DNA of 64,000 nt from Acidobacteriota bacterium (GTDB taxonomy: Bacteria; Acidobacteriota; UBA6911; RPQK01; JAJDTT01): assembly GCA_965209055.1 (NCBI GenBank), contig OZ242374.1:5184001-5248000 (forward strand), read 5' to 3'. This document shows positions 13,555 through 40,212 of the stretch, in pieces (the first letter of the stretch is position 1; each line of letters begins with the position of its first letter). A program made the translations under genes and the position numbers. Below the pieces are notes generated by a model that made no database searches, was not told where the DNA came from, and saw nothing but the letters and a program-made list of their open reading frames with translations.

Positions 13555-14370
13555 ATGAGTGTGCCTGGGTCCGGATGGGAACGCGCCGGCCGAGTCTCCT
13601 ACCTGGCCTTCTGCGCCGCCGTCTTCCTGTTTCTGATCGCGCCGATCCTGGTGATCGTCCCCCTCAGCTTCAACGTGGAGCCCTATTTCACCTTCACCGA
13701 GGGGATGTTGCGCCTGGACCCGGAAGCGTATTCGCTACGCTGGTACCGGACCGTCGCCGAAGACGAAGAGTGGCGGCGGGCGCTGGCCAACAGCCTCATC
13801 ATCGGCATCGCGGCGACGGCGCTGGCGACGGCGCTGGGGACGCTGGCCGCGTTGGGACTGGCCAGCCCCGCCATGCCCGGACGGCCCCTGGCCATGAGCC
13901 TGTTGATTTCGCCCATGGTCACGCCGGTGATCATCTCGGCGGCGGGGATGTTCTTCTTCTACTCCAAAATGGGCCTGGCCCAGACCCACCTGGGACTGAT
14001 CCTGGCCCACGCCGCGCTGGGCACTCCGTTCGTGGTGATCACGGTCACGGCCACGCTTTCCGGCTTCGACGCCAATCTGACCCGGGCCGCCGCCAGCCTG
14101 GGCGCCGGGCCGGTGCGGACCTTTGCGCGGGTGCAGTTGCCCATCATCGCTCCCGGCGTGGTTTCGGGCGCGCTCTTCGCCTTCGCCACCTCCTTCGACG
14201 AGGTGGTGACGGTGCTGTTCATGGGAGGGTTGGAGCAGCGCACGGTACCGCGTCAGATGTGGTCGGGGATTCGGGAAGAGATCAGCCCGGCAATCCTGGC
14301 GGTCGCCACCTTTCTGATCGCCTTTGCGCTGGTATTCATGCTGGTCGTCGAACGTCTGCGCCGCCGGTAG
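13555..14370 (+). CDS. ABC transporter permease (PotC-like)
   Basis: SLRWY, AAASLGA and SFDEVV; six TM segments. Confidence 0.9.
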   Translation: MSVPGSGWERAGRVSYLAFCAAVFLFLIAPILVIVPLSFNVEPYFTFTEGMLRLDPEAYSLRWYRTVAEDEEWRRALANSLIIGIAATALATALGTLAALGLASPAMPGRPLAMSLLISPMVTPVIISAAGMFFFYSKMGLAQTHLGLILAHAALGTPFVVITVTATLSGFDANLTRAAASLGAGPVRTFARVQLPIIAPGVVSGALFAFATSFDEVVTVLFMGGLEQRTVPRQMWSGIREEISPAILAVATFLIAFALVFMLVVERLRRR

Positions 14371-14375
14371 GAGGG

Positions 14376-14389
14376 GGGACTGTTAGTCC
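14376..14389. repeat. Left att core of element 1
   Basis: GGGACTGTTAGTCC, repeated at 23561-23574. Confidence 0.88.
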
Positions 14390-14416
14390 GGCGCTCTGTC
14401 CAACTGAGCTACGGGA
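14380..14416 (-). pseudogene. Relic 5' half of a tRNA (Arg-like D arm plus anticodon 5' stem) at the element 1 att end
   Basis: Minus strand TCCCGTAGCTCAGTTGGACAGAGCGCCGGA-CTAACAG shows the TAGCTCAG-TGG-AGAGC D-arm signature; no T arm or acceptor 3' half follows. Confidence 0.8.
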
Positions 14417-14428
14417 TTGATCCTTTCC

Positions 14429-14441
14429 TATCAATAGGTTA
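14429..14441 (+). promoter_or_regulatory. IHF-consensus site next to att
   Basis: TATCAATAGGTTA matches WATCAANNNNTTR; near-matches at 32643 and about 23511-23523 (minus strand). Confidence 0.5.
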
Positions 14442-15545
14442 TCCCGATTCTCCTCTCAAATCGTTCCTCCTATTTCCTGCCTGTTGCCTGTTTGCTGCCG
14501 GTCGCATTTGTGAGTCTTCGGTAGCCTGTGCCTCCCGAATGCATGCGAGTGCATGAGAACTGACGTAACCCGCGTAGCGCATGGTCGTGCTGATCGACGA
14601 GTGCCCCATCAGCTTCTGCACCGTCCTCACGTCCACACCCTGCATGAGCCAATGGCTGCACCGGAATCGTCTCAGGTCGTGAAATCCGACCTTCAACCCC
14701 ACCCGCTCGGCGGCCCGGCGCAACGGCATGTCGGGATTCACCCATCTCGTCCCGGTCCGGGTGTTGACGAAGACATATGGGGTGCTCAGGTAGCGAACCA
14801 ACCCGGCCAGGTATCCGGCGGCGTACTTCGACAGCGGGATCTCCCTCGTCTCGTCGTTCTTGGTGAATTCCACCCATAGCAGCCTCCGGGATAGGTCCAC
14901 CCGTTTCCAGGTGAGCGACAAGGCTTCGCCTTTCCGTATCCCCGTCTCGCCGATCACCGCGATCATGGCTTGCAGGTAAGGGTTGTCCATCGCCTCGACC
15001 AGGTCGCGGAACTGTTGAACCGTCAAAGGCCGGAAGACCTTCGTGGGCTCTTTGAGTTTGGGGAACCTCACCAGCGGGTGCGTGTCCACTTCCCCGCACT
15101 CCAGCGCGTAGGAAAACAGCTTGCTGAGGGCGGCAATGTCGCGGTTCACCGTGGCCGGTTGCACCTGCTTCTTCCTCTGGGCGACGTAGCGGTACAGGTC
15201 CTTGCGTTGGAACTCCTTCAGGGGAATGTTCCCCAGCATGGCGTTGAGGCTCTTGAACGAGAGCGCATAGCGGCGGCGGGAGCGCATGCGAGGTTTGCAA
15301 TACTCCTCGAAGAAACGCTCATAGAAGCTCCGGACCGTCCAGATCGTTCGGTTGCCACCGGCGAGCTCTTGCTTGAGCTGCTTCCAGGTGCCGTCCAGGA
15401 TGCTGGACTCGATTCGTGTTTGAAGCGCCTGTGCGCTCCGGTAGTTGGGGGCGTACATTCGGAGCCGACCGGATCCGTGCGGCCAGTACTTGCTGACGAC
15501 GAAACGTCGTCTCCCCCGGCGATCCTTCACCTTGTAGATGCCCAT
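14439..15545 (-). CDS. Tyrosine recombinase/integrase (element 1)
   Basis: Catalytic set TGIRKGE (R), TKND (K), HDLRR, MGH and RY; AGGAGG RBS upstream of ATG 15545. Confidence 0.93.
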   Translation of the reverse strand: MGIYKVKDRRGRRRFVVSKYWPHGSGRLRMYAPNYRSAQALQTRIESSILDGTWKQLKQELAGGNRTIWTVRSFYERFFEEYCKPRMRSRRRYALSFKSLNAMLGNIPLKEFQRKDLYRYVAQRKKQVQPATVNRDIAALSKLFSYALECGEVDTHPLVRFPKLKEPTKVFRPLTVQQFRDLVEAMDNPYLQAMIAVIGETGIRKGEALSLTWKRVDLSRRLLWVEFTKNDETREIPLSKYAAGYLAGLVRYLSTPYVFVNTRTGTRWVNPDMPLRRAAERVGLKVGFHDLRRFRCSHWLMQGVDVRTVQKLMGHSSISTTMRYAGYVSSHALACIREAQATEDSQMRPAANRQQAGNRRNDLRGESG

Positions 15546-15589
15546 GCATCTCCTCCTTTCTGGATCCGGGTTCTTCGCCGTGGGGCGAA

Positions 15590-15792
15590 TCGTACCACGG
15601 CTCCAGAGAATCGGCGTAGGCGCTGAGGTCCACCAGGGCAAAGGCGCGACGACGAGGACCGGCGGTTTCCAGTCCGGTTCTGGCATGGATGATGTGCAGA
15701 TCGGCCAGTTTGTGAATCGTGCGGACAGCCTTGCCCAGATACTAGGCTGCGGCGGCCACGCTGACGAGCCTCCGATTGGGCACCTGGATCAA
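15590..15792 (-). pseudogene. Excisionase/HTH_17-like gene with internal stop
   Basis: LIQVPNRRLVSVAAAA*YLGKAVRTIHKLADLHII..RRRAFALVDLSAYADSLEPW; TAG at 15744-15742; immediately upstream of int. Confidence 0.65.
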
Positions 15793-16197
15793 TGCGACCC
15801 GCTTGCCAACTCATCATGACGTTTGTTCTTTCACGCGAAGATACTCGTGCCAACCTCCCAGGTCATCGTTGCCAGCCGATCCACCACGTTCCGCGATTCT
15901 CATCTTGAACCTAGGAGCGAGTGCTCGGCGTTCGTTCACGAACGCGGTGAGCAGACTGGGTTCATTCGTGAAGAAGTCCCATTGACACGGTACTCCGCCC
16001 ACCTTCATCAATTTCCCAATTAGGCATGAGCCGGTAAATGGCGCTGGCGCTAGGGACCGTATGAACGTCTCGAACAGTCCGTGTATTGTACCGCTCACAT
16101 GCGGAATCCAGCCTCTGTTGCGCGCAAAACCTTAGTTTGTGGTACGTTGACATCTAGGTTGAAGGGTGGCTCCAGGATGCCTTTGCGGAGAAGTCAA

Positions 16198-16533
16198 ATG
16201 GCTAAGCAACCCAGAGATGCCGAACCGAGAGTTGAGTGGACTGAAGGGGAGTTCAGGGTTTCGCTTCCGCTTCAAGGCAGGATCATTGATGCCAAGTGGC
16301 GTCCCGGCACGACCACCGTGGTCCGGCTACGGGGGACAGGTACAGAAAACTGGAGCCCTGGCTTCGAGACACCGTTGAACGGCTGCAGCTTCGTCGGCCT
16401 AGTGCCCAACACGGAATATGAGATCCAAGTTACGCACAAAAACGCAAGGGGCGAAGGTCCTCCAATCAGGCTAAAGTGCAGAACGAAATCAAACGGCGAT
16501 GTTGGGAACATCATTCCGTTTCCGAAGAAATGA
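16198..16533 (+). CDS. Stand-alone fibronectin type III-like protein
   Basis: FVGLVPNTEYEIQVTHKNARGEGPP matches the FN3 signature. Confidence 0.65.
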   Translation: MAKQPRDAEPRVEWTEGEFRVSLPLQGRIIDAKWRPGTTTVVRLRGTGTENWSPGFETPLNGCSFVGLVPNTEYEIQVTHKNARGEGPPIRLKCRTKSNGDVGNIIPFPKK

Positions 16534-16637
16534 AGTTCATGGTACCTACGCGCCGTTCATTTCCGTGCGCTCAGCCCCTTTTGCATGCGATCGAGGGCTG
16601 TAGCGCACGCGTCAAGAAACCACTAAGCTAGGCACCC

Positions 16638-17624
16638 ATGACAGTAGTTGACACCCACAAACTACATGCACATGTGCCGTTCCTTTACGAAATGGTGATC
16701 TCGTTTTTCGAAGCGGCCAGAGTAATCCTCGACCCTGTTCTACAGGCGATCGACGGTTATCGGGAACTGGAGACTGAGCAGGACGGAAGGCCTGCTGCCC
16801 CCGACCATGTGGTACGCAAGTTTGCGGAACTTCCGGGTGGTGGAGTCGTCCGCCACGTCGGCGCGTGCCTGACCGCTACGACGAACCTCGGTCTCGCCTA
16901 CGTGCACTCGTTCCGTCTACTGAGCTTTCTTGCCCAGAACAAAGATGCGCTCGCGACCAACGCCGCCAAACCTCACCTCACCAAGTTGTTCGATGCCCTT
17001 CCGACTGCCTCACGGAAGGCGCTTTGCAATACATACAACCAAGTGCGCGCTCACGACTTCGAGATGGAGATGAGTGTTGGCCCGTTTCCGGAAGAGTCTA
17101 GAGACGAGCCCCAGTTGGGCGCCCGCAATTTCCGCTCAATGCTGGCCTATTGGCAGTCACGCGGGATGTTGCACGATAGCCACCTCTCCCTTTCGGGCAC
17201 GAGCCGCGCGTCCGTCATACGCATTTACATTCCGTTGAGATCCATGCTCGTCCTAGACCGTATCCTTGCGGACCATATCGCGCCTAGGCTTGGTCAAGAC
17301 TACACGCCCATGGACCATCAAATGTCGAGCCGAACCGAAAATCCGCGACTTATGTGGAATGGCAAAATGATCTCTGTGTCGCTACCCGACAAGCTAGGAC
17401 GGACAATCAAAGCCCAATGGAACCCGCCAGTCACCTCCGTCGTTCGTATCAGGGAGTCAGGAACGCAAACGTGGAGTCCCGGGTTCGAGACACCGTTTGA
17501 CAGGTGCTCCTTTGTGGATCTCAAGCCCGATACCGAATACGACGTACAAGTGACTCAAAAGAACGACGTTGGTGAGAGCCCACCTGCGATCACCTCGATC
17601 AAGACGGGTCCAAGAGCAGGATAG
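16638..17624 (+). CDS. Hypothetical protein with HEPN-like helical N-terminus and C-terminal FN3 domain
   Basis: C-terminal DLKPDTEYDVQVTQKNDVGESPP is paralogous to the upstream ORF; N-terminal HLTKLFDALP resembles HEPN. Confidence 0.6.
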   Translation: MTVVDTHKLHAHVPFLYEMVISFFEAARVILDPVLQAIDGYRELETEQDGRPAAPDHVVRKFAELPGGGVVRHVGACLTATTNLGLAYVHSFRLLSFLAQNKDALATNAAKPHLTKLFDALPTASRKALCNTYNQVRAHDFEMEMSVGPFPEESRDEPQLGARNFRSMLAYWQSRGMLHDSHLSLSGTSRASVIRIYIPLRSMLVLDRILADHIAPRLGQDYTPMDHQMSSRTENPRLMWNGKMISVSLPDKLGRTIKAQWNPPVTSVVRIRESGTQTWSPGFETPFDRCSFVDLKPDTEYDVQVTQKNDVGESPPAITSIKTGPRAG

Positions 17625-17688
17625 GAGATCTGCATTGTCCGATGCATTGGCGAAACGATCCGTGCCTCCCGCCGTCGGGGCGCTGCCT

Positions 17689-18282
17689 ATGCTGGTAGAA
17701 ACAACACCAGGCACCTGTATCGTCATGACTGCGCTCGAGGTATCTGTTCAATCATGGGTAAGTCCGTTCCGCCAAGCTTGTATCAAGCCAGCTGTCCAAA
17801 TTGAACGACAACGATCAACTAGGGCATGGCGCGCCCAGCCGAACATATCGACAGCACTCCGTGCGCGAAAGACTCGCGAGGCGGGCTACTGGATTTCACT
17901 CACCGATGACGTGGAATGTAAGCTCCGCCAAGAACTTGTCTCCTATGCGCACTTGGATGACGACTGGGACGGAGACGGCGCTAATGCACCGTCGCAAGAG
18001 GCGGTAAACGACGCCTTGACCTTCCTAGACGGCAGGCCTGGCGACATTCCATTGCCCTATCCGGAGGAAGGAACTGAAGGGGACGTCGGTGTGTACTGGG
18101 ATATCCGGCATGCACACGTGTTCGCCGAGGTGACCTTCGAGGGCGACGGCACGTTTGCATACTTCGCCGTTCATGGAGTGCCTGGAACCGTGGCTGAGAA
18201 GTGCGGCAATGACGGTGTGGATGCGGCCGCACCTTGGCCGGACGACATGCTGCGAATCCTGCGCATACAAGATCCCGCCTGA
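17689..18282 (+). CDS. Hypothetical acidic protein (WDGxGA motif); start uncertain
   Basis: LDDDWDGDGANAPSQEAVNDALTFL..GDVGVYW. Confidence 0.6.
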   Translation: MLVETTPGTCIVMTALEVSVQSWVSPFRQACIKPAVQIERQRSTRAWRAQPNISTALRARKTREAGYWISLTDDVECKLRQELVSYAHLDDDWDGDGANAPSQEAVNDALTFLDGRPGDIPLPYPEEGTEGDVGVYWDIRHAHVFAEVTFEGDGTFAYFAVHGVPGTVAEKCGNDGVDAAAPWPDDMLRILRIQDPA

Positions 18283-18302
18283 CGCCTGAGTCCGCTATCG
18301 TC

Positions 18303-18857
18303 ATGTCGTGCAGCTGTTTGGAGTTGGAGAGCAAGTATGGCCAAGCCGACTGCAAGTGCGCTCGCTACCGCGAGGAATTTCCTGACTGCGCTTGTGAACG
18401 CGAATCTGTCAGTGAGTACTCGCCTGGTCCAGTGGACGATAGTGAAGTCTTGGTGCGCACTCTTTTCAGAGAACAGCATATTGGTCCAGACGGTCATCTG
18501 AAGCCCACGTATTTTCGCCCCGAGCCCGCAACCAGCGGGTTCTCCGTTGACCGTGTGCTCCTGATGGGTCCCGAGCCCCTAATGTCAAGCAAACGCACCG
18601 ACGCTAGGTACAACGGCTATTTGCGGTTCATCGGAGCTTGCACCAAGGATATCCGGGAATTGCTGGAAGGCGGGAAACGGCTATTCTGCGTCTACGACTC
18701 CGCCATTGGAGAAAACATCTTTCACGCCGATATCTGCCAAAACTTGCATTTCGAACCAGGAGTCCAAGACCGAAAATCCCGAATGATGGAAATTGCCTGG
18801 CAGCTCAGGAGTGCTTTCCGCCCGCCGCAGCCTGTTCCTCCAACATCGATTACGTGA
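18303..18857 (+). CDS. Hypothetical protein, possible ART/RES-like toxin
   Basis: EVLVR..F..GFSVDR..HADI pattern; Cys-rich N-terminus. Confidence 0.55.
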   Translation: MSCSCLELESKYGQADCKCARYREEFPDCACERESVSEYSPGPVDDSEVLVRTLFREQHIGPDGHLKPTYFRPEPATSGFSVDRVLLMGPEPLMSSKRTDARYNGYLRFIGACTKDIRELLEGGKRLFCVYDSAIGENIFHADICQNLHFEPGVQDRKSRMMEIAWQLRSAFRPPQPVPPTSIT

Positions 18858-18964
18858 CACATTCGGTGTGTTGGGGACGGGTTCCATCCATCCAGCAGCG
18901 GATTGTGCGAGCCTAGTTTCCGCTCACCGCCTCGAAGCTGCTCAGCACAGAGCGAAGCTTCTCC

Positions 18965-19218
18965 CAGAACTCGGTGGAGACCGGGATGCTTGGACTCGAT
19001 GAGGTTGATCCATTCGACATCCAGGTCGGAGAGTGCCCAAGTGTCCTTGAATGCAGCACCAGCCGCCTTGCTCCCGATGGGCGCGGCGTAGTTGGCCTTG
19101 GAGTTGAACGCGGATCAAGATAGATCAGGTCCACGGAATCGGAGTTCATGCCCCGGAGGATGTAGAGGTTGTCGCTCGTCCAGATCGTCTTGTCGGCCCA
19201 GCTGGGAGTCACTACCAT
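18965..19218 (-). pseudogene. Truncated, frameshifted N6/N4 DNA methyltransferase
   Basis: TIWTSDNLYILRGMNSDSVDLIYLDP, then a 1-nt deletion in DPPF near 19110, then FNSKANYAAPIGSKAAGAAFKDTW in the shifted frame; truncated after about 85 codons. Confidence 0.8.
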
Positions 19219-19583
19219 GGAATCCACCAGTAGGCCCTTGCCGCCCTGTATCCCTTCTCGGTCAGCGATTTCACCTCGTAGAAAAATGGGGCTGTCTCTG
19301 CGGCGTCGATGTACTCCATCTTCGCCAGCCTCTCGATGCTCCTGTCAAGAACGCTGACTGGAGTATCGACGAAGCCAGCGTAAACGGAACTCGTGGTCAT
19401 TCGCCGATTCTTGGAGAGACTATGGTGGATGAACCGTAGTATCTTTCGGTCGATCCGAACCGGAGGGATAGCGTTAACCCTCCGCCAGAACAGGAAGCCA
19501 AGGAACACGACCGTTGCAGTCACGGAAGCTATCGCTGGGTGCTCCCTGGCGACCGAAACCAGAATCTCAACGAGTCGATCCAC
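19212..19583 (-). CDS. Hypothetical protein with N-terminal TM segment and winged-helix-like C-terminus
   Basis: Hydrophobic segment followed by SIERLAKMEYID..SLTEKG. Confidence 0.5.
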   Translation of the reverse strand: MDRLVEILVSVAREHPAIASVTATVVFLGFLFWRRVNAIPPVRIDRKILRFIHHSLSKNRRMTTSSVYAGFVDTPVSVLDRSIERLAKMEYIDAAETAPFFYEVKSLTEKGYRAARAYWWIPW

Positions 19584-19667
19584 GCACGCACTCTACACAC
19601 GCCTTTCCCGTCCGTCCACTAGGATTGATACTTCCCTTTAGTAATCCCTAGACCATGTTGTGCCATG

Positions 19668-20145
19668 TGGGGGAATGGATGCCCTTGAGGACCACAACAG
19701 GTTTTCAGGAATCTTCGCAGGGGCCTTCCCGCCAGGGATAATTGCGACGGGAGCGACCCCCCAGGGGGTGCTGCGCAAGTGTGAATTGCGCAACACCCCC
19801 GCGCCCGCACCGGGCAGCAAAAAGGGGGGGTCGCTCCCGTCCACCTCCGATTTCCCCGTGCGGGCGCCGGCGTTCGGGGGTAGGGGTCCGTAACTGACTG
19901 AAAGGAAAAAAGATCGGGGAAAGCGCATGTGTGAATCACAGGGACCCCCATTTGTGAATCCACCCCCTTTGTCCCATTCACATCCCGGATCGGGCGCGAG
20001 ACCCTCTTGACGCACTGCCGAAACGAGCCTCCATTGGCCCTTGCGAATGCCCAGTGCGTTCACCGTGAATTACGACTTGGAAAGAGCAACCTTCCGCCGC
20101 TGGTTGCGGCTCGATTGCCTGATTCAGCGCAGCCGTCACCCCGCC
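19668..20145. repeat. Conserved structured internal block shared with 39116-39591 (candidate oriT/oriV or ncRNA)
   Basis: High identity between the two elements; nested inverted repeats and repeated TGTGAAT. Confidence 0.7.
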
Positions 20146-20414
20146 GTAGGGGTCGAGAGCCCTTGCCTTGCCCGTGAGCGCAGCTACAGGGCTGAGGTAC
20201 AGAGGGGCTTGGCGCGGAATAGGCTCATCGTGGACAGTAGTGCCCAAAGCGGGACAGTTTCGATGCACACCGGGCAACGTGGCCTATGCCCATTTGTTTC
20301 AGTTATTGGACCCTTATCAGGAACCCGGTCTGCCCGGTCATCGCCGCCAGCGTCGCCCTTCGGATCGGCCCGCGTAGTCAGCTTGGAGCCTGATGGGCTA
20401 CGATAAGTGTGCCC

Positions 20415-23279: not shown

Positions 23280-23410
23280 AAATCGGCAATCAGGGGCGTG
23301 GTTCAGAGTCCAACAAAGCTAATTGTGCGGGCCTTTGTTAGCGGCCATGGACCGAATTCACAATGTCCCCGAGCGAGGCAACGGAATGGAGAAGGGAAAC
23401 GGAGAAGAGT

Positions 23411-23574
23411 GTGTCGGCTTTCAGGAGCCGAACCTGCTGCCTGTTTGTTGCCTGTTCAGCATGTCAAACATGAGGAGTCAACCACCTTACCGGTCCGGCG
23501 AAGAACCCGGTAACATATTGAAAACGTTAACGTTCGGTAGTCTTTGACTGTGGAACAGTTGGGACTGTTAGTCC
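23411..23574. repeat. Conserved right end and right att core of element 1
   Basis: Aligns with 39986-40148; tandem TGCCTGTT arm-like repeats at 23438-23456. Confidence 0.85.
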
Positions 23575-23638
23575 CCCAGTATTTTTGTGTTGTGAGCCGA
23601 TTCGGCAGGTGGAGATTTTGGCAAGTGGGAAGTGTAAA

Positions 23639-23660
23639 GGGGGGACTCTGTCCCCCCTAC
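23639..23660 (-). repeat. GTAG-type REP, inverted partner of the REP split by element 1
   Basis: Minus strand GTAG-GGGGGAC-AGA-GTCCCCC. Confidence 0.6.
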
Positions 23661-23756
23661 CCCCCCCTTTCGGCGACAAGAAAGTCGCCGCTCCGTTGCC
23701 TTCCCTCCACTCGTGTGGTGAAATCCGACCCCGAAAGCACTCGCAGGGGGAGTTTC

Positions 23757-25468: not shown

Positions 25469-25507
25469 TTGGCCTCGTCCGGGCCTCCGGCAGCGGCGGG
25501 CGAACCA

Positions 25508-27192: not shown

Positions 27193-27199
27193 CAACAGC

Positions 27200-29076: not shown

Positions 29077-29087
29077 GCTCTACCTCC

Positions 29088-31427: not shown

Positions 31428-31439
31428 CCTTCCTCCTTC

Positions 31440-31922: not shown

Positions 31923-31972
31923 CTTCTACCTCCTTGGATGGTAGTTCGAAACCAGGGATGGTTTGCGACGAT

Positions 31973-32410: not shown

Positions 32411-32533
32411 CAAGGGCCTCGAACAACGGTGACCAGAGGCGCCAACTCAGGGCGCTCCCTATTCTTCAACCGCCGTTTAGGTCTGTCAATCACTTTTCTC
32501 GGAAACCAGGGGAAATTGCTCCCCCACCGGCCT

Positions 32534-32602
32534 GGAGCGGCGATGTCCTAACCGCCGATTCTTGGACCATCGCGAAACCCGGCGCACGTGCGATTGGAAA
32601 TC
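32534..32602. repeat. Left part of a GGAG REP doublet interrupted by element 2 (remainder at 40138-40157)
   Basis: GGAGCGGCGATGTCCTAACCGCCG...GCGATTGGAAATC; intact copies at 42151-42259 and 50797-50878. Confidence 0.85.
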
Positions 32603-32630
32603 CGTTACTCTGTCCAGATGAGATAGGGGA
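32594..32630 (-). pseudogene. Decayed relic 5' half of a tRNA at the element 2 att end
   Basis: Minus strand TCCCCTATCTCATCTGGACAGAGTAACGGA-TTTCCAA aligns with the element 1 relic. Confidence 0.65.
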
Positions 32631-32644
32631 TTGGTCCTGTATTT

Positions 32645-33760
32645 TCAACAGTTTATCCCAATTCTCCCCTCTAAATGCTCCCTCTTGGTTCTTACTCGTT
32701 GCCTGTTTGTTGCCGGTTGCGTTTGGGAGTCTTCGTTAGCCTGTGCCTCCCGAATGCTGGCCAGCGCATGAGAACTGACGTACCCCGCATACCGCATGGT
32801 CGTGCTGATCGCCGAGTGGCCCATCAGCTTCTGCACCGTCCTCACGTCCACCCCCTGCATCAGCCAGTGGCTGCACCGGAATCGCCGCAGGTCGTGAAAT
32901 CCGACCTCCAAGCCGACCCTCTCGCCGGCCCGGCGCAGTGGCATGTCGGGATTCACCCATCTCGTCCCGGTCCTGCTGTTGACAAAGACATATGAGGTGT
33001 TCAGGTACCGTGGGAGCCCTGCCAGATATCCGGTGGCGTACTGCGACAGCGGTATCTCCCTCGTCCTGTCGTTCTTGGTGAATTCCACCCATAGCAGCCT
33101 CCGGGATAGGTCCACCCGTTTCCAGGTGAGCGACAAAGCTTCGCCTTTTCGTATCCCCGTCTCGCCGATCGCCGCGATCATGGCTTGCAGGTAGGGATTC
33201 TCCACCGCCTCGACCAGGTCGCGGAACTGCTGGACCGTCAAAGGCCGGAAGACCTTCTTCGGCTCCTTCAGTTTGGGGAACCGAATCAACGGGTGCGTGT
33301 CCACCTCTCCGCACTCCAGCGCGTAGGAAAACAGCTTGCTGATGGCGGCAATGGCGCGGTTCACCGTGGCCGGTTTGACTTGCTTCTTCCTCTGGGCGAC
33401 GTAGCGGTGCAGGTCTTTGCGTTGGAACTCCTTCAGGGGAATGTTCCCCAGCATGGAGTTGAGGCTCTTGAACGAACCCTCATAGCTCCGCCAGGAGCGC
33501 AGACGAGGTTTGCAGTACTCCTCGAGAAAACGCTTGTAGAAGCTCTGGACCGTCCAGATGGAGCGTTTCCCGCCGGCGAGCTCCTCCTTGAGCTGCTTCC
33601 AGGTGCCGTCCAGGATGCTGGACTCGATTCGTGTTTGAAGCGCCTGTGCGCTCCGGTAGTTGGGGGCGTACATTCTGAGCCGACCGGATCCGTTCGGCCA
33701 GTACTTGCTGACGACGAAACGTCGTCTCCCCCGGCGATCCTTCACCTTGTAGATGCCCAT
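32645..33760 (-). CDS. Tyrosine recombinase/integrase (element 2)
   Basis: Same R-K-HxxR-H-Y residues; near-identical to 14439-15545 except the C-terminal tail. Confidence 0.93.
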   Translation of the reverse strand: MGIYKVKDRRGRRRFVVSKYWPNGSGRLRMYAPNYRSAQALQTRIESSILDGTWKQLKEELAGGKRSIWTVQSFYKRFLEEYCKPRLRSWRSYEGSFKSLNSMLGNIPLKEFQRKDLHRYVAQRKKQVKPATVNRAIAAISKLFSYALECGEVDTHPLIRFPKLKEPKKVFRPLTVQQFRDLVEAVENPYLQAMIAAIGETGIRKGEALSLTWKRVDLSRRLLWVEFTKNDRTREIPLSQYATGYLAGLPRYLNTSYVFVNSRTGTRWVNPDMPLRRAGERVGLEVGFHDLRRFRCSHWLMQGVDVRTVQKLMGHSAISTTMRYAGYVSSHALASIREAQANEDSQTQPATNRQRVRTKREHLEGRIGINC

Positions 33761-33862
33761 GCATCTCCTCCTTTCTGGATCCGGGTTCTTCGCCGTGGTG
33801 CGAATCCTACCACGGCTCAAGCAAATCAACGTCGGCGTTCAAGTCCTCCAGGGCGAGGACCC

Positions 33863-34060
33863 GGCAGCAACTTCTACCGCCAGTTTGGTGTGAACCCCGC
33901 CAAGGCCGGTGACAAAGCGGCCGCCAATAACTCTCGGAAGAGGTCGCTCCGCAAGTTGAAGAAGATCAAGGAGGCGTGGCCGGATCTTAACTTCGGGCTG
34001 GCGCGGGGCGTCCTCATTGTCGAGCCATCCGCTCCGTCGGTTCCCTCACTCACCCAGTAG
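33863..34060 (+). pseudogene. C-terminal remnant of a plasmid RepA-like replication protein
   Basis: YRQFGVNPAKAGD..LKKIKEAWPDLNF..RGVLIVEPSAPSV resembles the RepA_C (IncW-type) C-terminus; no 5' portion present. Confidence 0.55.
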
Positions 34061-34267
34061 GCGGCGCGCCGGCGGGAGGAAAGCCACGACCCTCTGGGAT
34101 CGGATCAGGGTCCGATAAGTGGATTTTATCGGACCTAAAAACTTTTCAGGAGGGGTTGTCCGGCGGCTCCGCGCTCCGTCCAGAAATGCGCCGCGCAGAT
34201 TCGCCTCGCCCATGACCGCCCCCGGGAGGTCCGTCCAGGAACGTCCGGCAGGAAAAGACTCCCCCGC

Positions 34268-37200
34268 CTATTTCACGGTCAGCCACCAGGAGGCGGCGAA
34301 GGTGGAGTTGGGGGTCAGGAACCTCAGGACGGCCTGTCCCGCCGTTACGAACGTCCGGCGGGCGGTCTCTTTCTCGACCACCAGGGTCCCGCCGATGAAC
34401 GATCGCTGGTCCTGAGTCGGGACTCCATCCGGAATCTCGATCGTGGTGAGGTCGGACGGGTCTCCGTCCCCGTAGTCCTCGGTGCAGGTCATCGTCGTCC
34501 GCTGGAACACCACCCACCCGGGAGAGGCGTTCCGGTTCGGGTCCAACCCGGCATCCAGGCCCTGGAAGTCCCCGTCGCCGGTCCGGACCGTGGGGACGAG
34601 ATCGGTCAGGTCGGACAGGCTCCACCCTTGGACCCGTGGGTTTCCGGTACAGCCCATCGGGGAAGCGTCCGGCATCACCCCGATGCCATCGACCAGAAGG
34701 TAGAGTCCCGGCAGGTGGGGCGGCACGATGGGTCCATACACGGGAGGGACCCAGACCGGGTCCGGCAATTCATTCCCCTTGGGATCGAACAGACGAACCC
34801 GGTAGATCGTCCTCGCCCCGATCAGCCGGTACTCCCCCGGCTCCCCGTAGTCATCCGCGACGGACAGGAACTGAATGCTCTGATCCATAAGGTCGTTGCC
34901 GTACAGTGAGGACCAGACGAGCGCGCCGCCGTTGACGACCCGGTTGTTCTCCGTGGGAGTCGGATCCAGGGCTACCGGCGAACCGTCGCCGCTGTCGTCT
35001 GCCCGGTTGTCCTCATCGGTAGCGGCGTTGACCGCCTCGACGCCTCCGTGCGTCCAAGGGGACAAACGGGCCTCGTTCGTGCCGTTCAGGACCGCGTAGG
35101 CGACACCGATCCGGTGGTCGGAACCGTTCTCGCCGTGCGCCGTGACGGCGGGGCGCACCAAGGCGTTGACGCCCCAGGCGATCCCGCCGGTGAGGGCGGA
35201 AACCTCGGCGGCGGTGTGATGGCCGACGAGGTCGTTGAAGGCGACGGGCTCGACGTTGTGAACCGTCAAGGGCCCGACGTTGCGGCCGGTGCGTTCTTTC
35301 TCGTATTCCTGAGGTTGTCGGTCGGTGGCGAACTGAGCGACGGTCTGGAATCCGAGATCTCCGATGGCGTCGATGTTGTCCGCGCCGTGCAGGCCCTCGG
35401 CCAGAAAGTCGGGGAAGAGGACGTTGGCCGTTTCCGGGGGGTCTCCCGGAGCGCGGTCGTCCTCTTCGGAGCGAGCCCCCACGGCGGTGACGGCGATGAG
35501 GAACCGACCCGAGTTGAACCCGGGTCGATCTTTTCCGGTCTCGTCTTTGAAACTCACGGCCGGGATCTCGTCGAAGAGGATCTCCCTCACGTTCACCGGT
35601 CCTGATCCGTCTTCCTGGTCCGTTCCCGGGATCTCGTGGTGAAAGGGATCGACCAGGACGTTGGCCCCGGCCCGCAGGACGCGCAGATACCAGAGCACCG
35701 GTTCCATCTGGTCGTTGTGGTACTGGACGAGCAGCGTGACGGCTTGCCCGTCCGCAGTGTTGGTGACGGAGATGAAGTTGCGCTGGGCGGCTTCGGTCGC
35801 TCCCAGCCATCCTGAGACGCTCCTGGAGGCCGTTGGGGCCAACGGGTCGGAGTGAGCATAAGCACGGGCGTCGATTCCCATATCGGCGAGAAACAGCAAC
35901 TGGGACCCGGGGTGATCGTCAACGGCACTTGTGCTTCCTATCGGTCCCCCGCCGGAGAGGTCCAGTCTCCCCCCCGGCAGAGAACCATCGTCGGCCAGGA
36001 TGGTCCCGGTGGCGGTCCGCCGCAGCGGGAAGACCGGAGCCCAGCCCGCCTCTGGGTCGGCCGGCAGCAGGGTCACGGTCAGGGTCTCACCATCGTCGGC
36101 AAGAGTGTCGGCTGTCGTGGGCACGCTGATGGCCGTGCTGCTCGTCGAATCATCGGTGTCGGTGTTGGCCGGGATCGTCACGCTGCCCGCCGCCGTGCCG
36201 GTGTAATCGGCGCTGCTGGCCGTGCCGTCTTCCGTCTCGTAGCTCAGCGTCAGGCCGCCCGTGGCCCCGGCCACCCCCCGCACCGGATAGGTCGAGTGCT
36301 CCACCATGAAGCTGAGCGCGCTGCCTTCGGGGGCGCTGGCGTCCTCGATGCGCAGACACGACCATACGGTCAGGTCGTCGTCCGTGCGGCGGGTCTCGAG
36401 GGCCGCCGGCAGCGTTGCGGTGGCGTCCAGATTCGTGCCGCACAGGGAGAGATCGGTCAGGTCGGCCAGACTGCCGAGTTGGCCCGGAATCCCTCCCGTG
36501 AGGGGGTTGCCGGCCAGATGCAACAATTGGAGGCTGGTCAAGGCACTCAAGTCCGGGATGCTCCCGCTGAGTCGGTTCTGGTCGAGGACGAGGCGTTGGA
36601 GGCTGGTCAGGGCACTCAAGTCCGGGATGCTCCCGCTGAGTCGGTTTCGGTTGAGATAGAGCCAAGTGAGGCTGGTCGGGAAAACGCTGGCGTCAATGCC
36701 CCCGCTCAATTCGTTGTCGAAGAGGACGAGCCTGTTGAGGCTGGTCAGGTCGCTCAGGTCCGGGATGCTCCCGCTGAGTCGGTTGCGGTGCAGGAAGAGG
36801 ACTCTCAGGCTGCCCGGGAGATCGCTGGCGTCAAGGCTCCCGGTCAATCGGTTGTCGTTGAGGATGAGGGTGTGGAGACGGGGGAGGCTGCTCAGGTCGG
36901 GGATCGGGCCGCTGAGCCGGTTGTAGCTGAGGTAGAGGATTCTGAGCTTGGAAAGGCCGCTGAGGTCGGGAAAGGGCCCGCTGAGTTGGTTGTGCTGGAA
37001 TTGGACGTTGGAAAGCTCGGTGAGACCGCTTAGGTCCGGGATTTCCCCGCTGAGCTGGTTATCGTAGAGGTGGATTTGGTTGAGATTGGTAAGAGCGCTG
37101 AGGTCCGGAATACTCCCGCTAAGTCGGTTCTGGTAGAGTTCGATTTGTCGGAGATTGGTAAGAGCGCTGAGGTCCGGAATGGACCCGCTCAACTCGTTGC

Positions 37201-37615
37201 TGGCGAGTAAGAGTTCTTCGAGGGCGGTCAGGCTGCTCAGGTCGGGAATCTCCCCGCTCAACTCGTTGCTGAAGAAGGCGAGGATTTGGAGGGCGGTCAG
37301 GCTATTCAGGGCCGCCGGAATCGTTCCGGTGAGTTGGCGGCTGCCGAGGACAAGCGAGGTGACCCGGCTCCCGGTCACGGTGATCCCGTCCCACGAGGCC
37401 ATGCTCAGGCTGTTGGCCCAGTTCAGGCTCGCCGTGCCCCGTAAGGCATCCATGAGCCCCAGCAGGGCGGCGCAGTCGCCGGCCAGGGCCGCGGGGTCGG
37501 AGGGAGCAGGTGTCACGCCGGTGATCGCGACGTCGGTCACCGCGCAAGAGGTCTGCGCACCAGCTTCGGTTGCCAGTCCCAACAGGAGGGCCGAGCTCGA
37601 CAAAGCCATCGCCAA
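34268..37615 (-). CDS. Secreted LRR protein (plant-type LxxLxLxxNxLSGxIP repeats) with Calx-beta-like domain; true start probably GTG 37809 across a tandem repeat
   Basis: About 13 LRRs of 22-23 aa, LRRNT-like WDGITV..RVTSL, YETEDGTASSADY and signal cleavage motif AGA-Q. Confidence 0.85.
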   Translation of the reverse strand: MAMALSSSALLLGLATEAGAQTSCAVTDVAITGVTPAPSDPAALAGDCAALLGLMDALRGTASLNWANSLSMASWDGITVTGSRVTSLVLGSRQLTGTIPAALNSLTALQILAFFSNELSGEIPDLSSLTALEELLLASNELSGSIPDLSALTNLRQIELYQNRLSGSIPDLSALTNLNQIHLYDNQLSGEIPDLSGLTELSNVQFQHNQLSGPFPDLSGLSKLRILYLSYNRLSGPIPDLSSLPRLHTLILNDNRLTGSLDASDLPGSLRVLFLHRNRLSGSIPDLSDLTSLNRLVLFDNELSGGIDASVFPTSLTWLYLNRNRLSGSIPDLSALTSLQRLVLDQNRLSGSIPDLSALTSLQLLHLAGNPLTGGIPGQLGSLADLTDLSLCGTNLDATATLPAALETRRTDDDLTVWSCLRIEDASAPEGSALSFMVEHSTYPVRGVAGATGGLTLSYETEDGTASSADYTGTAAGSVTIPANTDTDDSTSSTAISVPTTADTLADDGETLTVTLLPADPEAGWAPVFPLRRTATGTILADDGSLPGGRLDLSGGGPIGSTSAVDDHPGSQLLFLADMGIDARAYAHSDPLAPTASRSVSGWLGATEAAQRNFISVTNTADGQAVTLLVQYHNDQMEPVLWYLRVLRAGANVLVDPFHHEIPGTDQEDGSGPVNVREILFDEIPAVSFKDETGKDRPGFNSGRFLIAVTAVGARSEEDDRAPGDPPETANVLFPDFLAEGLHGADNIDAIGDLGFQTVAQFATDRQPQEYEKERTGRNVGPLTVHNVEPVAFNDLVGHHTAAEVSALTGGIAWGVNALVRPAVTAHGENGSDHRIGVAYAVLNGTNEARLSPWTHGGVEAVNAATDEDNRADDSGDGSPVALDPTPTENNRVVNGGALVWSSLYGNDLMDQSIQFLSVADDYGEPGEYRLIGARTIYRVRLFDPKGNELPDPVWVPPVYGPIVPPHLPGLYLLVDGIGVMPDASPMGCTGNPRVQGWSLSDLTDLVPTVRTGDGDFQGLDAGLDPNRNASPGWVVFQRTTMTCTEDYGDGDPSDLTTIEIPDGVPTQDQRSFIGGTLVVEKETARRTFVTAGQAVLRFLTPNSTFAASWWLTVK

Positions 37616-37743
37616 GCCGCGCCAGCGAAGGCCAACACCGCCGCGGTCGCGGGAGAGCGCCGTTGCACCCCGACGGGCGGCCGGGCCAGCGCAATGCTCG
37701 GAAAAGGCAGCAAGGTCGCCAACTGGGTGCGGGCAGGCGACAG

Positions 37744-37795
37744 GGCTCCTGGCTCCTGGCTCCTGGCTCCTGGCTCCTGGCTCCTGGCTCCTGGC
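37744..37795. repeat. Heptanucleotide tandem repeat (GGCTCCT)x7 plus GGC
   Basis: Read directly from the sequence. Confidence 0.97.
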
Positions 37796-38274
37796 AAGAT
37801 CGTGTGCACTGAGCGTCCCCTTTAGTCAAGCATCCGTGCCGCCCCTTCCGCGGCAAATTTAGCACAGCTTGGCTCGAAAGGCCGTCACTAAGGTCAGGCA
37901 TGGGCGTGTGGCTGTCCGTCCAGCCTCCGCCAGCGGAGCGCGACGGAGCGGGGATCTCCGCGACCGGGTGTCACTCCTTGTTGACCTGGTCCAACTCCGA
38001 GCGTTTCCGAACGCCACCCAGCGGAGCGGTGTCGTGGCGTCCCCTCCCCTCGCCCAGTCGCAGATATAGGGGATTAACGGGGGCTGGGGGTCCAGACCGG
38101 ACACAGGAGAGGAAGAGCGACGAGTTCCTGGTGGAGTACCTGCGGGTGAACGAGGAGCACTGCCCCCGCTGAGTAGCCAGTAGAACAGTTCCCCCCTAAA
38201 GGCCTCTTCCAGCGGCGCGGCTCGATCCAGGTCCGCGAATCCGGCAAGGGATAGACTGGACAGGAAAGGATTCA

Positions 38275-38811
38275 ATGATCTGCTACGTGGCGACGCACAA
38301 TGAGAGTGGGAGGCGATATGTCGGCATCACCAAGGGCTCGCTGAGTCTCCGTAGGAGTACGCACGAAAGCCATGCCAAGAAGGAGGTGGACAATACCTTT
38401 TTCCACCAAGCCATCCGAGCATACGGTGCCGATGGATTTTCTTGGAAGGTGGTAGCTGAGGGAGACGAAGAAGTTATTAGGCTGCTAGAGAACGCCCTGA
38501 TTCACACATGGCAAACAAATTGGCCTGACCAAGGTTTTAACTCCAAGGGAGGGGCAGAATGGATTGACCAACCTCCGTTGACACAACCGCCAGAAGACTA
38601 TTCCGATTCGCCTTTCGGAAATGTGGATGTCTTGTACATGATGTATAGCTTGGACGCGATTGTCAGTTGGGTCGAGAGAAATTACCCGGACGGTGATCGT
38701 TGTAGCGACTTAAGGGAAATGGGCGACAGGTTACTGAAACGGCTGGATCGAATCGACCCCCCTCGTGGTCCAAGCAGCGCTGACGAACCTGACAGCCGAG
38801 AGAACCACTGA
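38275..38811 (+). CDS. GIY-YIG nuclease family protein
   Basis: ICY..N..GRRYVGIT..RR..H..FHQAIRAYGADGF..LE..LI..GFN. Confidence 0.75.
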   Translation: MICYVATHNESGRRYVGITKGSLSLRRSTHESHAKKEVDNTFFHQAIRAYGADGFSWKVVAEGDEEVIRLLENALIHTWQTNWPDQGFNSKGGAEWIDQPPLTQPPEDYSDSPFGNVDVLYMMYSLDAIVSWVERNYPDGDRCSDLREMGDRLLKRLDRIDPPRGPSSADEPDSRENH

Positions 38812-39115
38812 GACGCCACAACATAGCCGGCCCATAGGATTTTCAGTAACCTTCTGCGGCTCACACGGCGGTGCCACTTCCGCCGCCGAAAAACTCCCGT
38901 AACAGATCAAGATGGCCTTCGCCAGAATTATTTCCGCCTCTCGGGGAAATCCTCCTCCCGCCACTCGATAGAGCAATAGACCAGGTTCTCGGGGAGCTTT
39001 TCGGTTTTGCCCAGGCAGGACGAATTCTAGGAGCCCTCTTCGAGCTTGTAGGGACCCCCCAACTCCGAAGCGGTGGTGCTTTCGTAGGTAGAGTTTCCGG
39101 GATAAGTGCCGCGTT

Positions 39116-39591
39116 GGGGGAATGAACTCCTTGGATGACCGCAACAAGTCTTCAGAAATCTTCGCAGGGGCCTTCCCGCAGGGATCAATTCGACGGGAGC
39201 GACCCCCCCAGGGGGTGTTGCGCAGATGTGAATCGCGCAACACCCCCGCGCCCGCACCGGGCAGCAAAAAGGGGGGGTCGCTCCCGTCCACCTCTATTTT
39301 CCCCGTGCGGCCACCCGGTGGCCGGAAATGGGGCCGTAACTGACTGAAAGAAAAGAAGCTCGGGGAGAGTGCATTTGTGAATCACCGGGACCGCTTTTTG
39401 TGAATCCACCCCCTTTGTCCCATTCACATCCCGGATCGGGCGCGAGACCCTCTTTTCGCACTGCCGAAACGAGCCTCCATTAGCCCTTGCGACTGCCAAA
39501 TGCGTTCAACGTCAATCACGACCTGGAAGGAGCGACTTTCCGCCGCTGGTTGCAACTCGACCGCCCGCTTCAGTGCGGCCGTCACCCCGCC
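39116..39591. repeat. Second copy of the conserved structured block
   Basis: Aligns to 19668-20145. Confidence 0.7.
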
Positions 39592-39803
39592 ACAAGAGAC
39601 GAATCGGGGGCAACCAGGTCTTTTTCGGCGTTACCGATGGTCACGGCGGTTTTACGCCCAACTGTCAAAACATTGGACGCGTAGGATGGCCCCTGTTGAC
39701 CTGAAACAGGCGGACGAAGGGTCTGGCGCCTTTGATTCGGAGGCGTGAGAAGGAACCCTGCGCACAATGGCGGCGCGGCGTATTTCGTGGTAGCGTCCAA
39801 CCC

Positions 39804-39974
39804 ATGATTCTGGCCCTTGCGCTTCTCCTCGCCGTCGTCGCCTGGGTCTGCTACGCCGTCGCCCGCGCCCTGGACGCGAGTCTTGAAGAGGCGGACCGCC
39901 AGGCGGCTGCGGTGTTGGCAAACGATCGTCGAATCGCATTCACGATGTCTCCGAGCATCGGGAATACGAGGTAA
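39804..39974 (+). CDS. Small single-TM hypothetical protein
   Basis: MILALALLLAVVAWVCYAVAR hydrophobic helix; short ORF only. Confidence 0.35.
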   Translation: MILALALLLAVVAWVCYAVARALDASLEEADRQAAAVLANDRRIAFTMSPSIGNTR

Positions 39975-39985
39975 GGGAAAAAAGC

Positions 39986-40148
39986 GTGTCGGCTTTCAGG
40001 AGCAAAATCTACTGCCTGTTTGTCGCCTGTTCAGCACGCCAGACATGGGGAGTCAACCACTTTACCGATTCGGCGAAGAACCCGGTATTCCATTGAAAAC
40101 GTTAATGTTTAGTAGTTATTGACTGAGGGACGGTTGGGATTGGAAATC
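39986..40148. repeat. Conserved right end and right att core of element 2
   Basis: Aligns with 23411-23574; TGCCTGTT repeats at 40013-40031. Confidence 0.85.
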
Positions 40149-40212
40149 GCCCCTCCTCTTGAACCAATTCCGAGAAACCGGGACACCAAGGCAGGCATGC
40201 TATGATTCATGA

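Follow-up and report, generated by a model that had tools for sequence, protein, structure and literature searches.

REP-like palindromes as insertion sites of a tyrosine-integrase element family with probable descent from tRNA-Arg targeters

A site-specific integrase normally has a single chromosomal site and is thereby limited to one copy per genome. The window analysed here, i.e., the whole stretch of 64,000 nucleotides, contains two elements with closely similar integrases and different direct repeats, and it raises the question of how such an enzyme comes to occupy different sites in one genome. Very probably, these are site-specific integrative elements with a lambda-type tyrosine integrase, whose attachment sites are host REP-like palindromes and whose ancestors targeted tRNA-Arg genes. 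Both repeat pairs reported in the preliminary description of this DNA were found in place, GGGACTGTTAGTCC at 14376-14389 and 23561-23574 for element 1 and GATTGGAAATC at 32592-32602 and 40138-40148 for element 2. The features of the window are as follows.

14376..23574, minus strand: element 1, 9.2 kb including both copies of the 14-bp repeat (end repeats; empty site in G008 and G001)
14380-14386 and 23565-23571: 7-mer CTGTTAG of element 1, at both ends
14380..14418, minus strand: decayed 5' half of tRNA-Arg, with the 7-mer as its end in the place of the anticodon loop (Rfam tRNA alignment and best genomic tRNA match)
14439..15686, minus strand: tyrosine integrase ORF of element 1 (PF00589); likely start MGIYKV, 14439-15545
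14486..14499, plus strand: candidate arm-type site GCCTGTTTGCTGCC of element 1, about 97 bp from the core (position constant in 25 of 25 elements)
19724..20158, strand not given: conserved structured block of element 1, non-coding in appearance and common to all 26 elements
20409..23279, plus strand: cargo of element 1, MmeI-like restriction-modification enzyme
23439..23452, plus strand: candidate arm-type site GCCTGTTTGTTGCC of element 1, about 122 bp before the core
32592..40148, minus strand: element 2, 7.6 kb including both copies of the 11-bp repeat (end repeats; empty site in G008)
32594-32600 and 40140-40146: 7-mer TTGGAAA of element 2, at both ends
32645..33829, minus strand: tyrosine integrase ORF of element 2 (PF00589)
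32701..32714, plus strand: candidate arm-type site of element 2, integrase side
34268..37615, minus strand: cargo of element 2, leucine-rich-repeat protein
39173..39594, strand not given: structured block of element 2
40014..40027, plus strand: candidate arm-type site of element 2, far end
42235..42259, plus strand: intact, unoccupied REP-Y palindrome with centre TTGGAAA
50854..50878, plus strand: intact, unoccupied REP-Y palindrome with centre TTGGAAA

Removal of each element together with one repeat copy rebuilds GGAG-GGGGGA[CTGTTAG]TCCCCC at element 1 and GCGA[TTGGAAA]TCGCCCCTCC at element 2, exactly as had been proposed, and the palindrome of element 2 does occur intact at 42235-42259 and 50854-50878. 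The two circle-junction strings reconstructed earlier are likewise consistent with the end sequences of the elements, and no tRNA gene is present at any junction in the window. Both elements are absent at this locus in all eight same-genus genomes compared. The relatives G008 and G001, which lack the elements here, carry an intact palindrome at the locus of element 1, and G008 has one with the same 7-mer at that of element 2.

The two REP-sited elements are thus real, and they belong to a far larger family than had been described. The 6.08-Mb genome of the window harbours 26 elements of 2.7-25 kb (29 integrase-side and 30 far ends, paired into 26) with 26 full-length integrase copies, the mutual identity of which is 86-100%. 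Both junctions could be read in 25 elements, and in all of these one and the same 7-mer stands at either end and forms the centre of a REP-like palindrome; in the genome-wide junction table, all 26 host flanks are REP arms. Counted by element, including one that was read at one end only, the 7-mers are CTGTTAG (7), CTAACAG (9), TTGGAAA (5), TAGGAAA (4), and TTAGAAA (1). One pair of elements is identical at 2781 of 2781 positions and another, of 10.5 kb, shows 100% identity except for an intron; since identical copies occupy different REPs, movement must have been recent. The organism's own data (assembled contigs, four runs) showed neither an excised circle nor an empty site; the shorter side of the single contig joint across an element measures 22 letters, and its inserted letters match the junction of another element. 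The tyrosine integrase is the sole conserved gene, and the cargo (up to about 22 kb) consists mostly of anti-phage defence genes, among them restriction-modification, GmrSD, and CRISPR-Cas systems.

The two window integrases are identical at 339 of 390 positions (87%) and match PF00589 with 96.5 and 92 bits (cut-off, 27.1). Their best solved relative is the integrase 5c6k (E value of 2.3e-16), with whose corresponding motifs GIRKGE, HDLRR, and GHSSISTTMRY line up; we take these motifs to hold the catalytic R, H-x-x-R, H, and Y residues. In the N-terminal part, Pfam Int_N and SAM-like matches span only residues 93-212, and no arm-binding family was matched at an E value of ≤0.001. A 14-bp candidate arm repeat flanks the core on either side, at distances that are constant across 25 of 25 elements, and it recurs in the related genome G003. 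Judged from these sequence features, the enzyme would be a lambda-type (arm-plus-core) tyrosine integrase with predicted arm sites. None of 10 small ORFs in the two window elements was recognisable as an excisionase gene. Assignment to the integron integrases, with their folded attC hairpins, was rejected (60.9 bits for TIGR02249 against a cut-off of 265, and junctions that look like ordinary double-strand exchange), as was a REP-targeting insertion sequence of the IS3 or IS110 type, given the conserved tyrosine integrase and the large cargo. A RAYT/REP system does not fit either, as the Y1_Tnp matches lie outside the elements and the element enzyme matches PF00589.

On the element side, the core reads GGGA-N7-TCC in 25 of 25 elements, which bears out the constant register claimed previously. 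The broader dyad rule proposed with it, (G/C)GA-N7-TC(C/G), is not strict on the host side, where REP-Z targets read GGGGG-N7-ACCCCC and one target in G004 reads GGA-N7-GTC. In four elements (three with TAGGAAA and one with TTGGAAA in REP-Z), the two junctions disagree at the bases on either flank of the 7-mer, so the flanking repeat is exactly 7 bp long. Insertions in either orientation are found at the same REP-X, from sublineages with reverse-complement 7-mers, and at least eight different 7-mers occur in the genus at paired or integrase-linked ends. An excised circle would carry an attachment site of about 260 bp, comprising in order an arm repeat about 122 bp away, the core GGGA-N7-TCC, the decayed tRNA-Arg 5' half, and an arm repeat about 97 bp away, both repeats presumably being bound by the integrase. 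On the host side, the REP stems would provide the inverted half-sites and the REP centre the 7-bp overlap, within which strands are probably exchanged; this overlap would have to match the 7-mer of the element, and its asymmetry would fix the orientation of insertion.

Descent from a tRNA target, suspected from the tRNA-like segments, is now backed by a same-genus sibling and by the integrase tree. The tRNA-like half, cut at the 7-mer, does align to a tRNA model (Rfam tRNA positions 1-37), and the 7-mer falls on the anticodon-loop columns. Among 4227 families, tRNA was the only one matched at an E value of ≤10; the score of 16.1 bits (E value of 0.16) lies below the threshold of 29, as expected for half a tRNA. 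All 21 distinct halves have tRNA-Arg as their best match among the 68 tRNAs called in the genome. The sibling integrase in G003 (80% identity by tblastn, 82% over the 368-aa query) adjoins a complete tRNA-Arg(TCT) gene (71.7 bits); its element sits in the anticodon loop and supplies the 5' half of the gene. The host flank resumes about 47 kb away, where, after a far end homologous to that of the window elements, come the 7-mer and the host's own, displaced tRNA 5' half. An identity as tRNA-gene-targeting islands was rejected for the 26 elements themselves, none of which lies in a tRNA gene; only the G003 sibling shows this feature. For the tRNA-side elements of G035 and G010 (70% identical), a search of 40 kb revealed no far end. 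All 33 REP-associated rows of the integrase tree group in a single clade (SH-aLRT of 94) nested within the tRNA-Arg targeters, with tRNA-Arg 5'-type rows as successive sisters, and a single REP/tRNA change is required. The ancestors would thus have inserted in the tRNA-Arg anticodon loop, replacing the 5' half of the gene. REP hairpins could have served such an integrase as secondary sites because they resemble the tRNA-Arg anticodon arm, and later changes of the 7-mer may have opened further REP families.

It might be objected that the palindromes are products of the elements, i.e., excision scars or collapsed ends, and not pre-existing targets. Occupied copies indeed outnumber intact ones for the REP-X centre CTGTTAG (16 versus 7 to 8) and for REP-Z (5 versus 2, with one intact copy per 7-mer against 4 and 1 occupied), and elements are found no more than 1.5 kb from the intact REP-Z copies. 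For REP-Y, in contrast, 79 to 80 intact copies face 4 occupied ones, and its exact 17-mer occurs 79 times in the genome versus 0 for a reversed control pattern. Moreover, REPs are present in nine of nine genomes of the genus, including G001, which yielded no integrase match at an E value of ≤1e-30 and yet carries 7 REP-Y and 22 REP-X-type palindromes, so REPs exist without the integrase. Together with 221 REP-X-type palindromes with other centres in G004, the occurrence of REPs in tandem arrays, and two weak Y1-transposase (RAYT-like) matches, this makes an origin from the elements highly improbable. The same counts qualify the earlier notion of a move to multicopy REPs, which best fits REP-Y since the other two classes of target hardly count as repetitive here. 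Even less credible is a choice of target, or recombination itself, through the structured block as an RNA or DNA structure, as in guide-RNA recombinases. This block is the only sequence shared besides the integrase and the ends, even in minimal elements of 2.7 kb; compensatory changes are seen in its stems, it has no match among the Rfam families, and an ARAGORN tRNA-Val call (19736-19820) falls within the copy of element 1. But its variants do not follow the 7-mer classes in an alignment judged by eye, about 30 copies lie outside the 26 elements, it is multicopy in the integrase-free G001, and classical core and arm sites fully account for the junction anatomy.

A low-specificity integrase in the manner of Tn916 or CTnDOT, which accepts any GC-rich hairpin and carries over or converts a 7-mer that records history without determining the target, is unlikely, if somewhat less so than the two preceding explanations. 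It would accommodate the variable host-side flanks (GGGA/TCC, GCGA/TCG, and GGGGG/ACC), the empty element 1 sites of relatives, each 1 nt off the 7-mer of the element, and the two copies in G035 at anticodon loops that differ by 1 nt. Coupling sequences of Tn916/CTnDOT-type transposons, however, usually differ at the two ends, whereas the end 7-mers are identical in 25 of 25 elements, and assignment to this type was rejected on that ground. Each 7-mer class is furthermore confined to REPs with that centre, and the parsimonious ancestor of the element 1 site (G008 being the closest relative) already had the 7-mer of the element.

Site-specific integration into REPs by descendants of a tRNA-Arg targeter is therefore preferred here, and it leaves room for different roles of the 7-mer. 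That the 7-mer alone sets specificity is something we infer, as is the manner of its exchange; its identity at both ends could partly stem from integration itself (near-match conversion) and is not necessarily a requirement. The 7-mer types do not map congruently onto the integrase tree (at least nine changes for six states), which is compatible with recombination between elements as well as with repeated swapping. A naturally reprogrammable arm-type integrase, the backbone of which is 86-100% identical and which would reach at least eight sites in the genus simply by a change of the 7-bp overlap, with REP stems as generic half-sites, is conceivable, and we put it forward tentatively and with some doubt.

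The family probably resolves a natural route from a single tRNA site to many REP sites, leading from the tRNA-Arg anticodon loop to REPs that resemble the anticodon arm and on to further REP families. A living intermediate persists in a sister species, and the decaying tRNA half would be a molecular fossil. The findings suggest that REPs serve as landing pads in a second, non-IS way, by which restriction-modification, GmrSD, and CRISPR-Cas cargo is spread within the genome. If the integrase is reprogrammable, integration would be redirected by a change of nothing but the 7-mer, and the family would exemplify the turning of a single-site integrase into a multicopy, transposon-like carrier of defence genes; should the 7-mer suffice for retargeting, integration could be directed by this enzyme in a simple way.

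No described family of REP-retargeted tyrosine-integrase elements was found in the literature searched. Crossing over in the tRNA anticodon loop is known for the tyrosine integrases of genomic islands and prophages, which are said to form part of Williams' 2002 classification and to be covered by the Islander database. The present elements share with them the tyrosine recombinase, the core at the anticodon-loop position, the 7-bp overlap, and a carried tRNA fragment, and the G003 sibling is a regular member. Unlike these islands, with one copy per target gene, the 26 elements occupy many sites of one genome outside tRNA genes, and their decaying tRNA fragment restores nothing. In the lambda and HK022 integrases, the 7-bp overlap has to be the same in both partners although the protein itself does not read it, as known from site-affinity mutants, and retargeting through a change of overlap is therefore plausible. 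A study of HK022 reportedly speaks of the "promiscuity of the 7 bp overlap," and a preprint is said to deal with reprogramming of the mv4 integrase. Those cases are laboratory mutants or engineering, whereas the REP family is natural, with apparently at least eight overlaps in one genus. IS1397/ISKpn1 and IS621 (IS110 family) also insert into REP palindromes and so use multicopy intergenic sites that are mostly harmless. Their enzymes, in contrast, are DDE or DEDD transposases, with a guide RNA in IS110 elements, and they have no arm sites, cargo, or tRNA relic. A bridge-RNA paper (PMC11208160) is said to deal with elements of this kind. Targeting of the 5' part of tRNA genes is called "considerably less frequent" than 3' targeting in a statement on the work of Zhao and Williams (2002, J Bacteriol 184:859) in PMC6563490. 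The inferred ancestor and the relatives in G003, G035, and G010 resemble such elements in replacing the tRNA-Arg 5' half; the elements of Zhao and Williams reportedly remain in tRNA genes, unlike the 26 REP elements. For the tycheposons of marine cyanobacteria, the available part of the source (10.1101/2020.12.28.424599) describes no REP targets, and each integrase clade keeps its own tRNA gene; by the same account, they resemble the present family as small, cargo-carrying, tRNA-associated elements with tyrosine recombinases, partial-tRNA flanks, and many copies per pangenome.

The preliminary description of the window had reported two direct repeats, two integrase genes and palindromes that are restored upon removal of the elements, all of which were borne out on re-examination:

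14376-23574, minus strand, element 1 (9.2 kb, 7-mer CTGTTAG)
19724-20158, structured block within element 1
32592-40148, minus strand, element 2 (7.6 kb, 7-mer TTGGAAA)
39173-39594, structured block within element 2

In each case, one core, i.e., the 7-mer with its flanks, adjoins the 3' end of the integrase gene, and a second copy marks the other end of the element, at a distance of 9.2 kb in element 1 and 7.6 kb in element 2. The window is part of a single 6.08-Mb contig with a G+C content of 62.8%, in which the element 1 integrase as a query found 49 matches at an E value of ≤0.001, including 26 full-length integrases with 86 to 100% identity. BLAST searches of this genome with the end sequences recovered 29 integrase-side ends and 30 far ends, which pair into 26 elements of 2,669 to 25,051 bp; one of them, at 6077194, extends past the contig end with only one junction readable. 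Both junctions carry the same 7-mer in all 25 elements readable at both ends. The classes are CTGTTAG (seven elements), its reverse complement CTAACAG (nine, one of them read at a single end), TTGGAAA (five), TAGGAAA (four) and TTAGAAA (one). No integrase with more than 30% identity was found in phage and plasmid collections.

The constant register proposed at the outset holds across the elements of this genome; the element side invariably reads GGGA ahead of the 7-mer and TCC after it, and the host side is composed at every element of both arms of a short palindromic repeat (REP). Three families serve as targets, namely, REP-X (GGAG-GGGGGGA...TCCCCCC-GTCTTC), REP-Y (GGGCGA...TCGCCC-CTCC) and REP-Z (GGAG-TGGGGG...ACCCCCA-CTCC). 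In four REP-Z insertions, the bases adjoining the 7-mer on both sides differ between the two junctions, so that the duplicated segment is exactly 7 bp long and the exchange region is bounded. Two sublineages with mutually reverse-complementary 7-mers occupy REP-X in opposite orientations, and orientation is therefore fixed by the asymmetric center rather than by the REP flanks. Orphan or decayed ends, left out of the count of 26 elements, are still fused to REP arms on the same contig (G000:C1), and some carry further 7-mers (CTGAAAG and a TTGGGAA-like core):

near 416694, 474736, 484585 and 4708651, orphan far ends
near 2499714, 4556478 and 5095083, orphan integrase-side ends

The segment between the integrase stop codon and the 7-mer corresponds to tRNA positions 1 to 31, and all 21 distinct versions have tRNA-Arg (TCT or TCG) as their best match out of the genome's 68 called tRNAs. 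It also aligns to a tRNA model, at a score below the threshold: cut at the 7-mer, its only Rfam match is to tRNA positions 1 to 37 (16.1 bits, E value of 0.16), while the uncut half gave no Rfam match at an E value of ≤10, and at gathering thresholds Rfam yielded no match anywhere in the window. The D-stem is not maintained through compensating changes and, according to our own reading, the segment diverges about as fast as the neighboring sequence (~78 to 80% identity from one element class to another), which gives it the appearance of a relic.

A tRNA-borne relative was found in the same genus, i.e., in genome G003, whose integrase (80% identity by tblastn, 82% over the 368-aa query) ends ~50 bp from a complete tRNA-Arg(TCT) gene (71.7 bits). 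The 5'-side flank of the unoccupied tRNA-Arg(TCT) gene of the window's genome picks up again in G003 ~47 kb away. Directly before this resumed flank lies a far end homologous to that of the window elements, arm repeat included, which is followed by the 7-mer TTAGAAG and a displaced second copy of the tRNA 5' half. The G003 element thus interrupts the tRNA gene at its anticodon loop and itself provides the 5' half. In G035, tRNA-Arg genes TCT and TCG are each adjoined by a copy, and the two copies are 99.9% identical over 2,427 bp; of the three mismatches between them, one falls in the anticodon and another at a T-arm base, which places the beginning of their identity at the anticodon loop. The identity stops after 2.4 kb without a repeated core, and no clean second junction was found for the far ends of G035 and G010, either by BLAST with the end sequences of the window or by searching 40 kb for the 7-mer. 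Integrases with 40 to 52% identity adjoin the 3' side of tRNA-Arg genes, and more distant ones are located at tRNA-Leu. One tRNA-Arg(TCG) gene (G035:C1:5131097-5133529 and G010:C21:320530-322533) has a 47 to 53% identical integrase on its 3' side and a 70% identical one on its 5' side; here, two related integrase lineages share one anticodon loop from opposite sides.

In the integrase tree (49 rows, with the five fragmentary rows L038, L052, L053, L057 and L058 omitted), all 33 REP-associated rows form a single clade (SH-aLRT of 94), with G003 and then G035 together with G010 as successive sisters, and one change between tRNA and REP targeting is enough. The tree itself is unrooted, and for drawing it the root was placed on the tRNA-Leu rows; the relic tRNA half is a further basis for the direction of the change from tRNA to REP. 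Matches at an E value of ≤1e-90 occur in only 9 of 401 sampled genomes of the phylum.

A scan for perfect hairpins revealed many palindrome families. The exact REP-Y 17-mer is present in 79 copies in the window's genome and in 7 to 58 copies in each of eight other genomes of the genus (reversed control pattern, 0 occurrences), REP-X-type palindromes are present in all nine, and G001 contains REPs yet no integrase of the REP-element family (E value of ≤1e-30). Within the window's genome, intact and occupied sites number 80 and 4 for REP-Y with TTGGAAA, 15 and 1 for REP-Y with TTAGAAA, and 7 to 8 and 16 for REP-X with a CTGTTAG/CTAACAG center; REP-Z has one intact site per 7-mer versus 4 and 1 occupied ones. 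Copy numbers, the REPs of G001 without an integrase and occupancy by class together identify the REPs as preexisting targets, and two of the classes are either nearly exhausted or were never abundant. A species-specific expansion is seen in G004 with 221 REP-X-type palindromes, mostly with the centers TTT/AAA and GAA/TTC, compared to 7 to 22 in the other eight genomes. A weak Y1-transposase (RAYT-like) match, one of two in the window's genome, is located at G000:C1:1142970-1143203 on the minus strand, ~600 bp away from the REP into which the element at 1143785 is inserted.

Empty sites in relatives, predicted for both loci, were indeed found. The outer flanks of the two window elements are 9 to 12 kb apart in all eight same-genus genomes versus 25.8 kb in the window's genome, and in G001 the difference equals the summed length of both elements. 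Where the window has element 1, an intact REP-X is seen in G008 and G001, immediately 3' of the same transporter gene's stop codon and with downstream sequence shared with the window; their centers are each 1 base off CTGTTAG, at different positions, and the six other genomes have other sequence. For element 2, the corresponding place in G008 holds an intact REP-Y with the center TTGGAAA, and the seven others have diverged intergenic sequence.

A 14-bp repeat, GCCTGTTTGTTGCC (up to 1 to 2 changes), is located on both sides, ~97 bp from the core on the integrase side, where it falls within the 3' end of the gene, and ~122 bp from the core on the far side. In 25 of 25 elements, the two copies are direct repeats, and they are also present in G003; we read them as candidate arm-type sites. 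Minimal elements (2.7 kb) contain just the integrase, the structured block and the ends, and the ORFs of one of them overlap in all frames. In a search for an excisionase, 10 small ORFs from the two window elements had just weak Pfam matches, to fn3 and GIY-YIG. Recent movement within the genome is evident from near-identical copies, e.g., two minimal copies at different REPs identical at 2781 of 2781 positions, another pair with 99.96% identity, a 10.5-kb pair identical except for an inserted intron, and a relative of element 2 (95 to 97% identity) at another REP with an identical integrase-side end. Assembled contigs from four runs of one sample contained no true joint that skips or circularizes element 1, a result neutral as to excision; a joint 14389->23671 has a shorter side of just 22 letters, and its inserted letters match the far junction of the element at 835579.

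Defense-type domains were detected in 14 of 20 large ORFs from 13 elements, comprising type I, type ISP and type III-like restriction-modification, GmrSD, a methylase-Mrr fusion and Cas3 with a GSU0054-family protein; the remaining ORFs have LRR or fn3 repeats (two), a DDE transposase (one) or no match (three). Further cargo, in the window, comprises an MmeI-like enzyme and an LRR protein. Cas3 together with a Cas protein of the GSU0054 family in the 21-kb element L139 (G000:C1:3904155-3924100) suggests that a REP-targeting element carries a CRISPR-Cas system. In 3 of the 26 elements, a 1.9-kb group II intron is inserted at integrase codon 50/51 on the strand of the gene (L025, G000:C1 ~3708100-3710019; at an identical position in the two others, 783020 and 5304924). 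It encodes an RVT_1 domain (125.8 bits) and a maturase domain (19.8 bits, below the Pfam cutoff of 23), and given its orientation the integrase may still be expressed after splicing.

The structured block (~330 to 430 nt) is present in every element and gave 66 BLAST hits in the window's genome, with ~30 copies outside the 26 elements. It has an 18-bp outer stem around a 14-bp and a 5-bp hairpin, and the 78 distinct copies exhibit compensatory changes in both stems and 1-nt indels in a C-run. A comparison with Rfam gave no family match and chance-level hits only. The block is also multicopy in G001, which lacks an integrase of the REP-element family, and in G023 of another family. A tRNA-Val(CAC) called by ARAGORN within the block (19736-19820, minus strand, 85 nt) is probably false, the window having no Rfam tRNA at gathering score.

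With respect to specificity, sister integrases share a 7-mer in different stems (REP-Y and REP-Z, support of 96), close integrases occupy REP-X in opposite orientations (support of 96), and at least nine 7-mer changes are needed on the tree for six states. This implies either frequent changes of the 7-mer or recombination of integrase genes between elements, and in both readings the 7-mer can be separated from the protein. Judging from our own reading of stem-length versus element counts, wherever CTGTTAG is flanked by an inverted repeat of at least 3 bp it appears to belong to a REP or an element junction. The 7-mer might by itself determine the target. The anticodon arm of tRNA-Arg (tRNA sense, CGGA-CTTCTAA-TCCG) resembles the REP-Y variant used by one element (GCGA-TTTCTAA-TCGC), whose 7-mer is 1 base off the tRNA loop. 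Further 7-mers of the genus (CTGGAAG, CTAGAAA and AGGAAAG) occur in G004 and G007, and most are one to three changes off the loop, with REP-X being farther. A stepwise shift from the anticodon loop to similar REP-Y centers and then to further 7-mers would be a plausible route.

For tyrosine integrases, there is nothing unusual about a crossover in the anticodon loop, a 7-bp overlap or arm sites, and REP targeting is known for insertion sequences. Replacement of the 5' part of a tRNA gene is known but rare, as stated in a passage of PMC6563490 that cites Zhao and Williams 2002. Among the matches listed in searches of the open-access literature, there was neither a tyrosine integrase with REPs as attachment sites nor an arm-type one that uses REPs and multiplies to tens of copies. 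The initial observation is confirmed, and its reading as tRNA-type integrase elements retargeted to REPs is supported.
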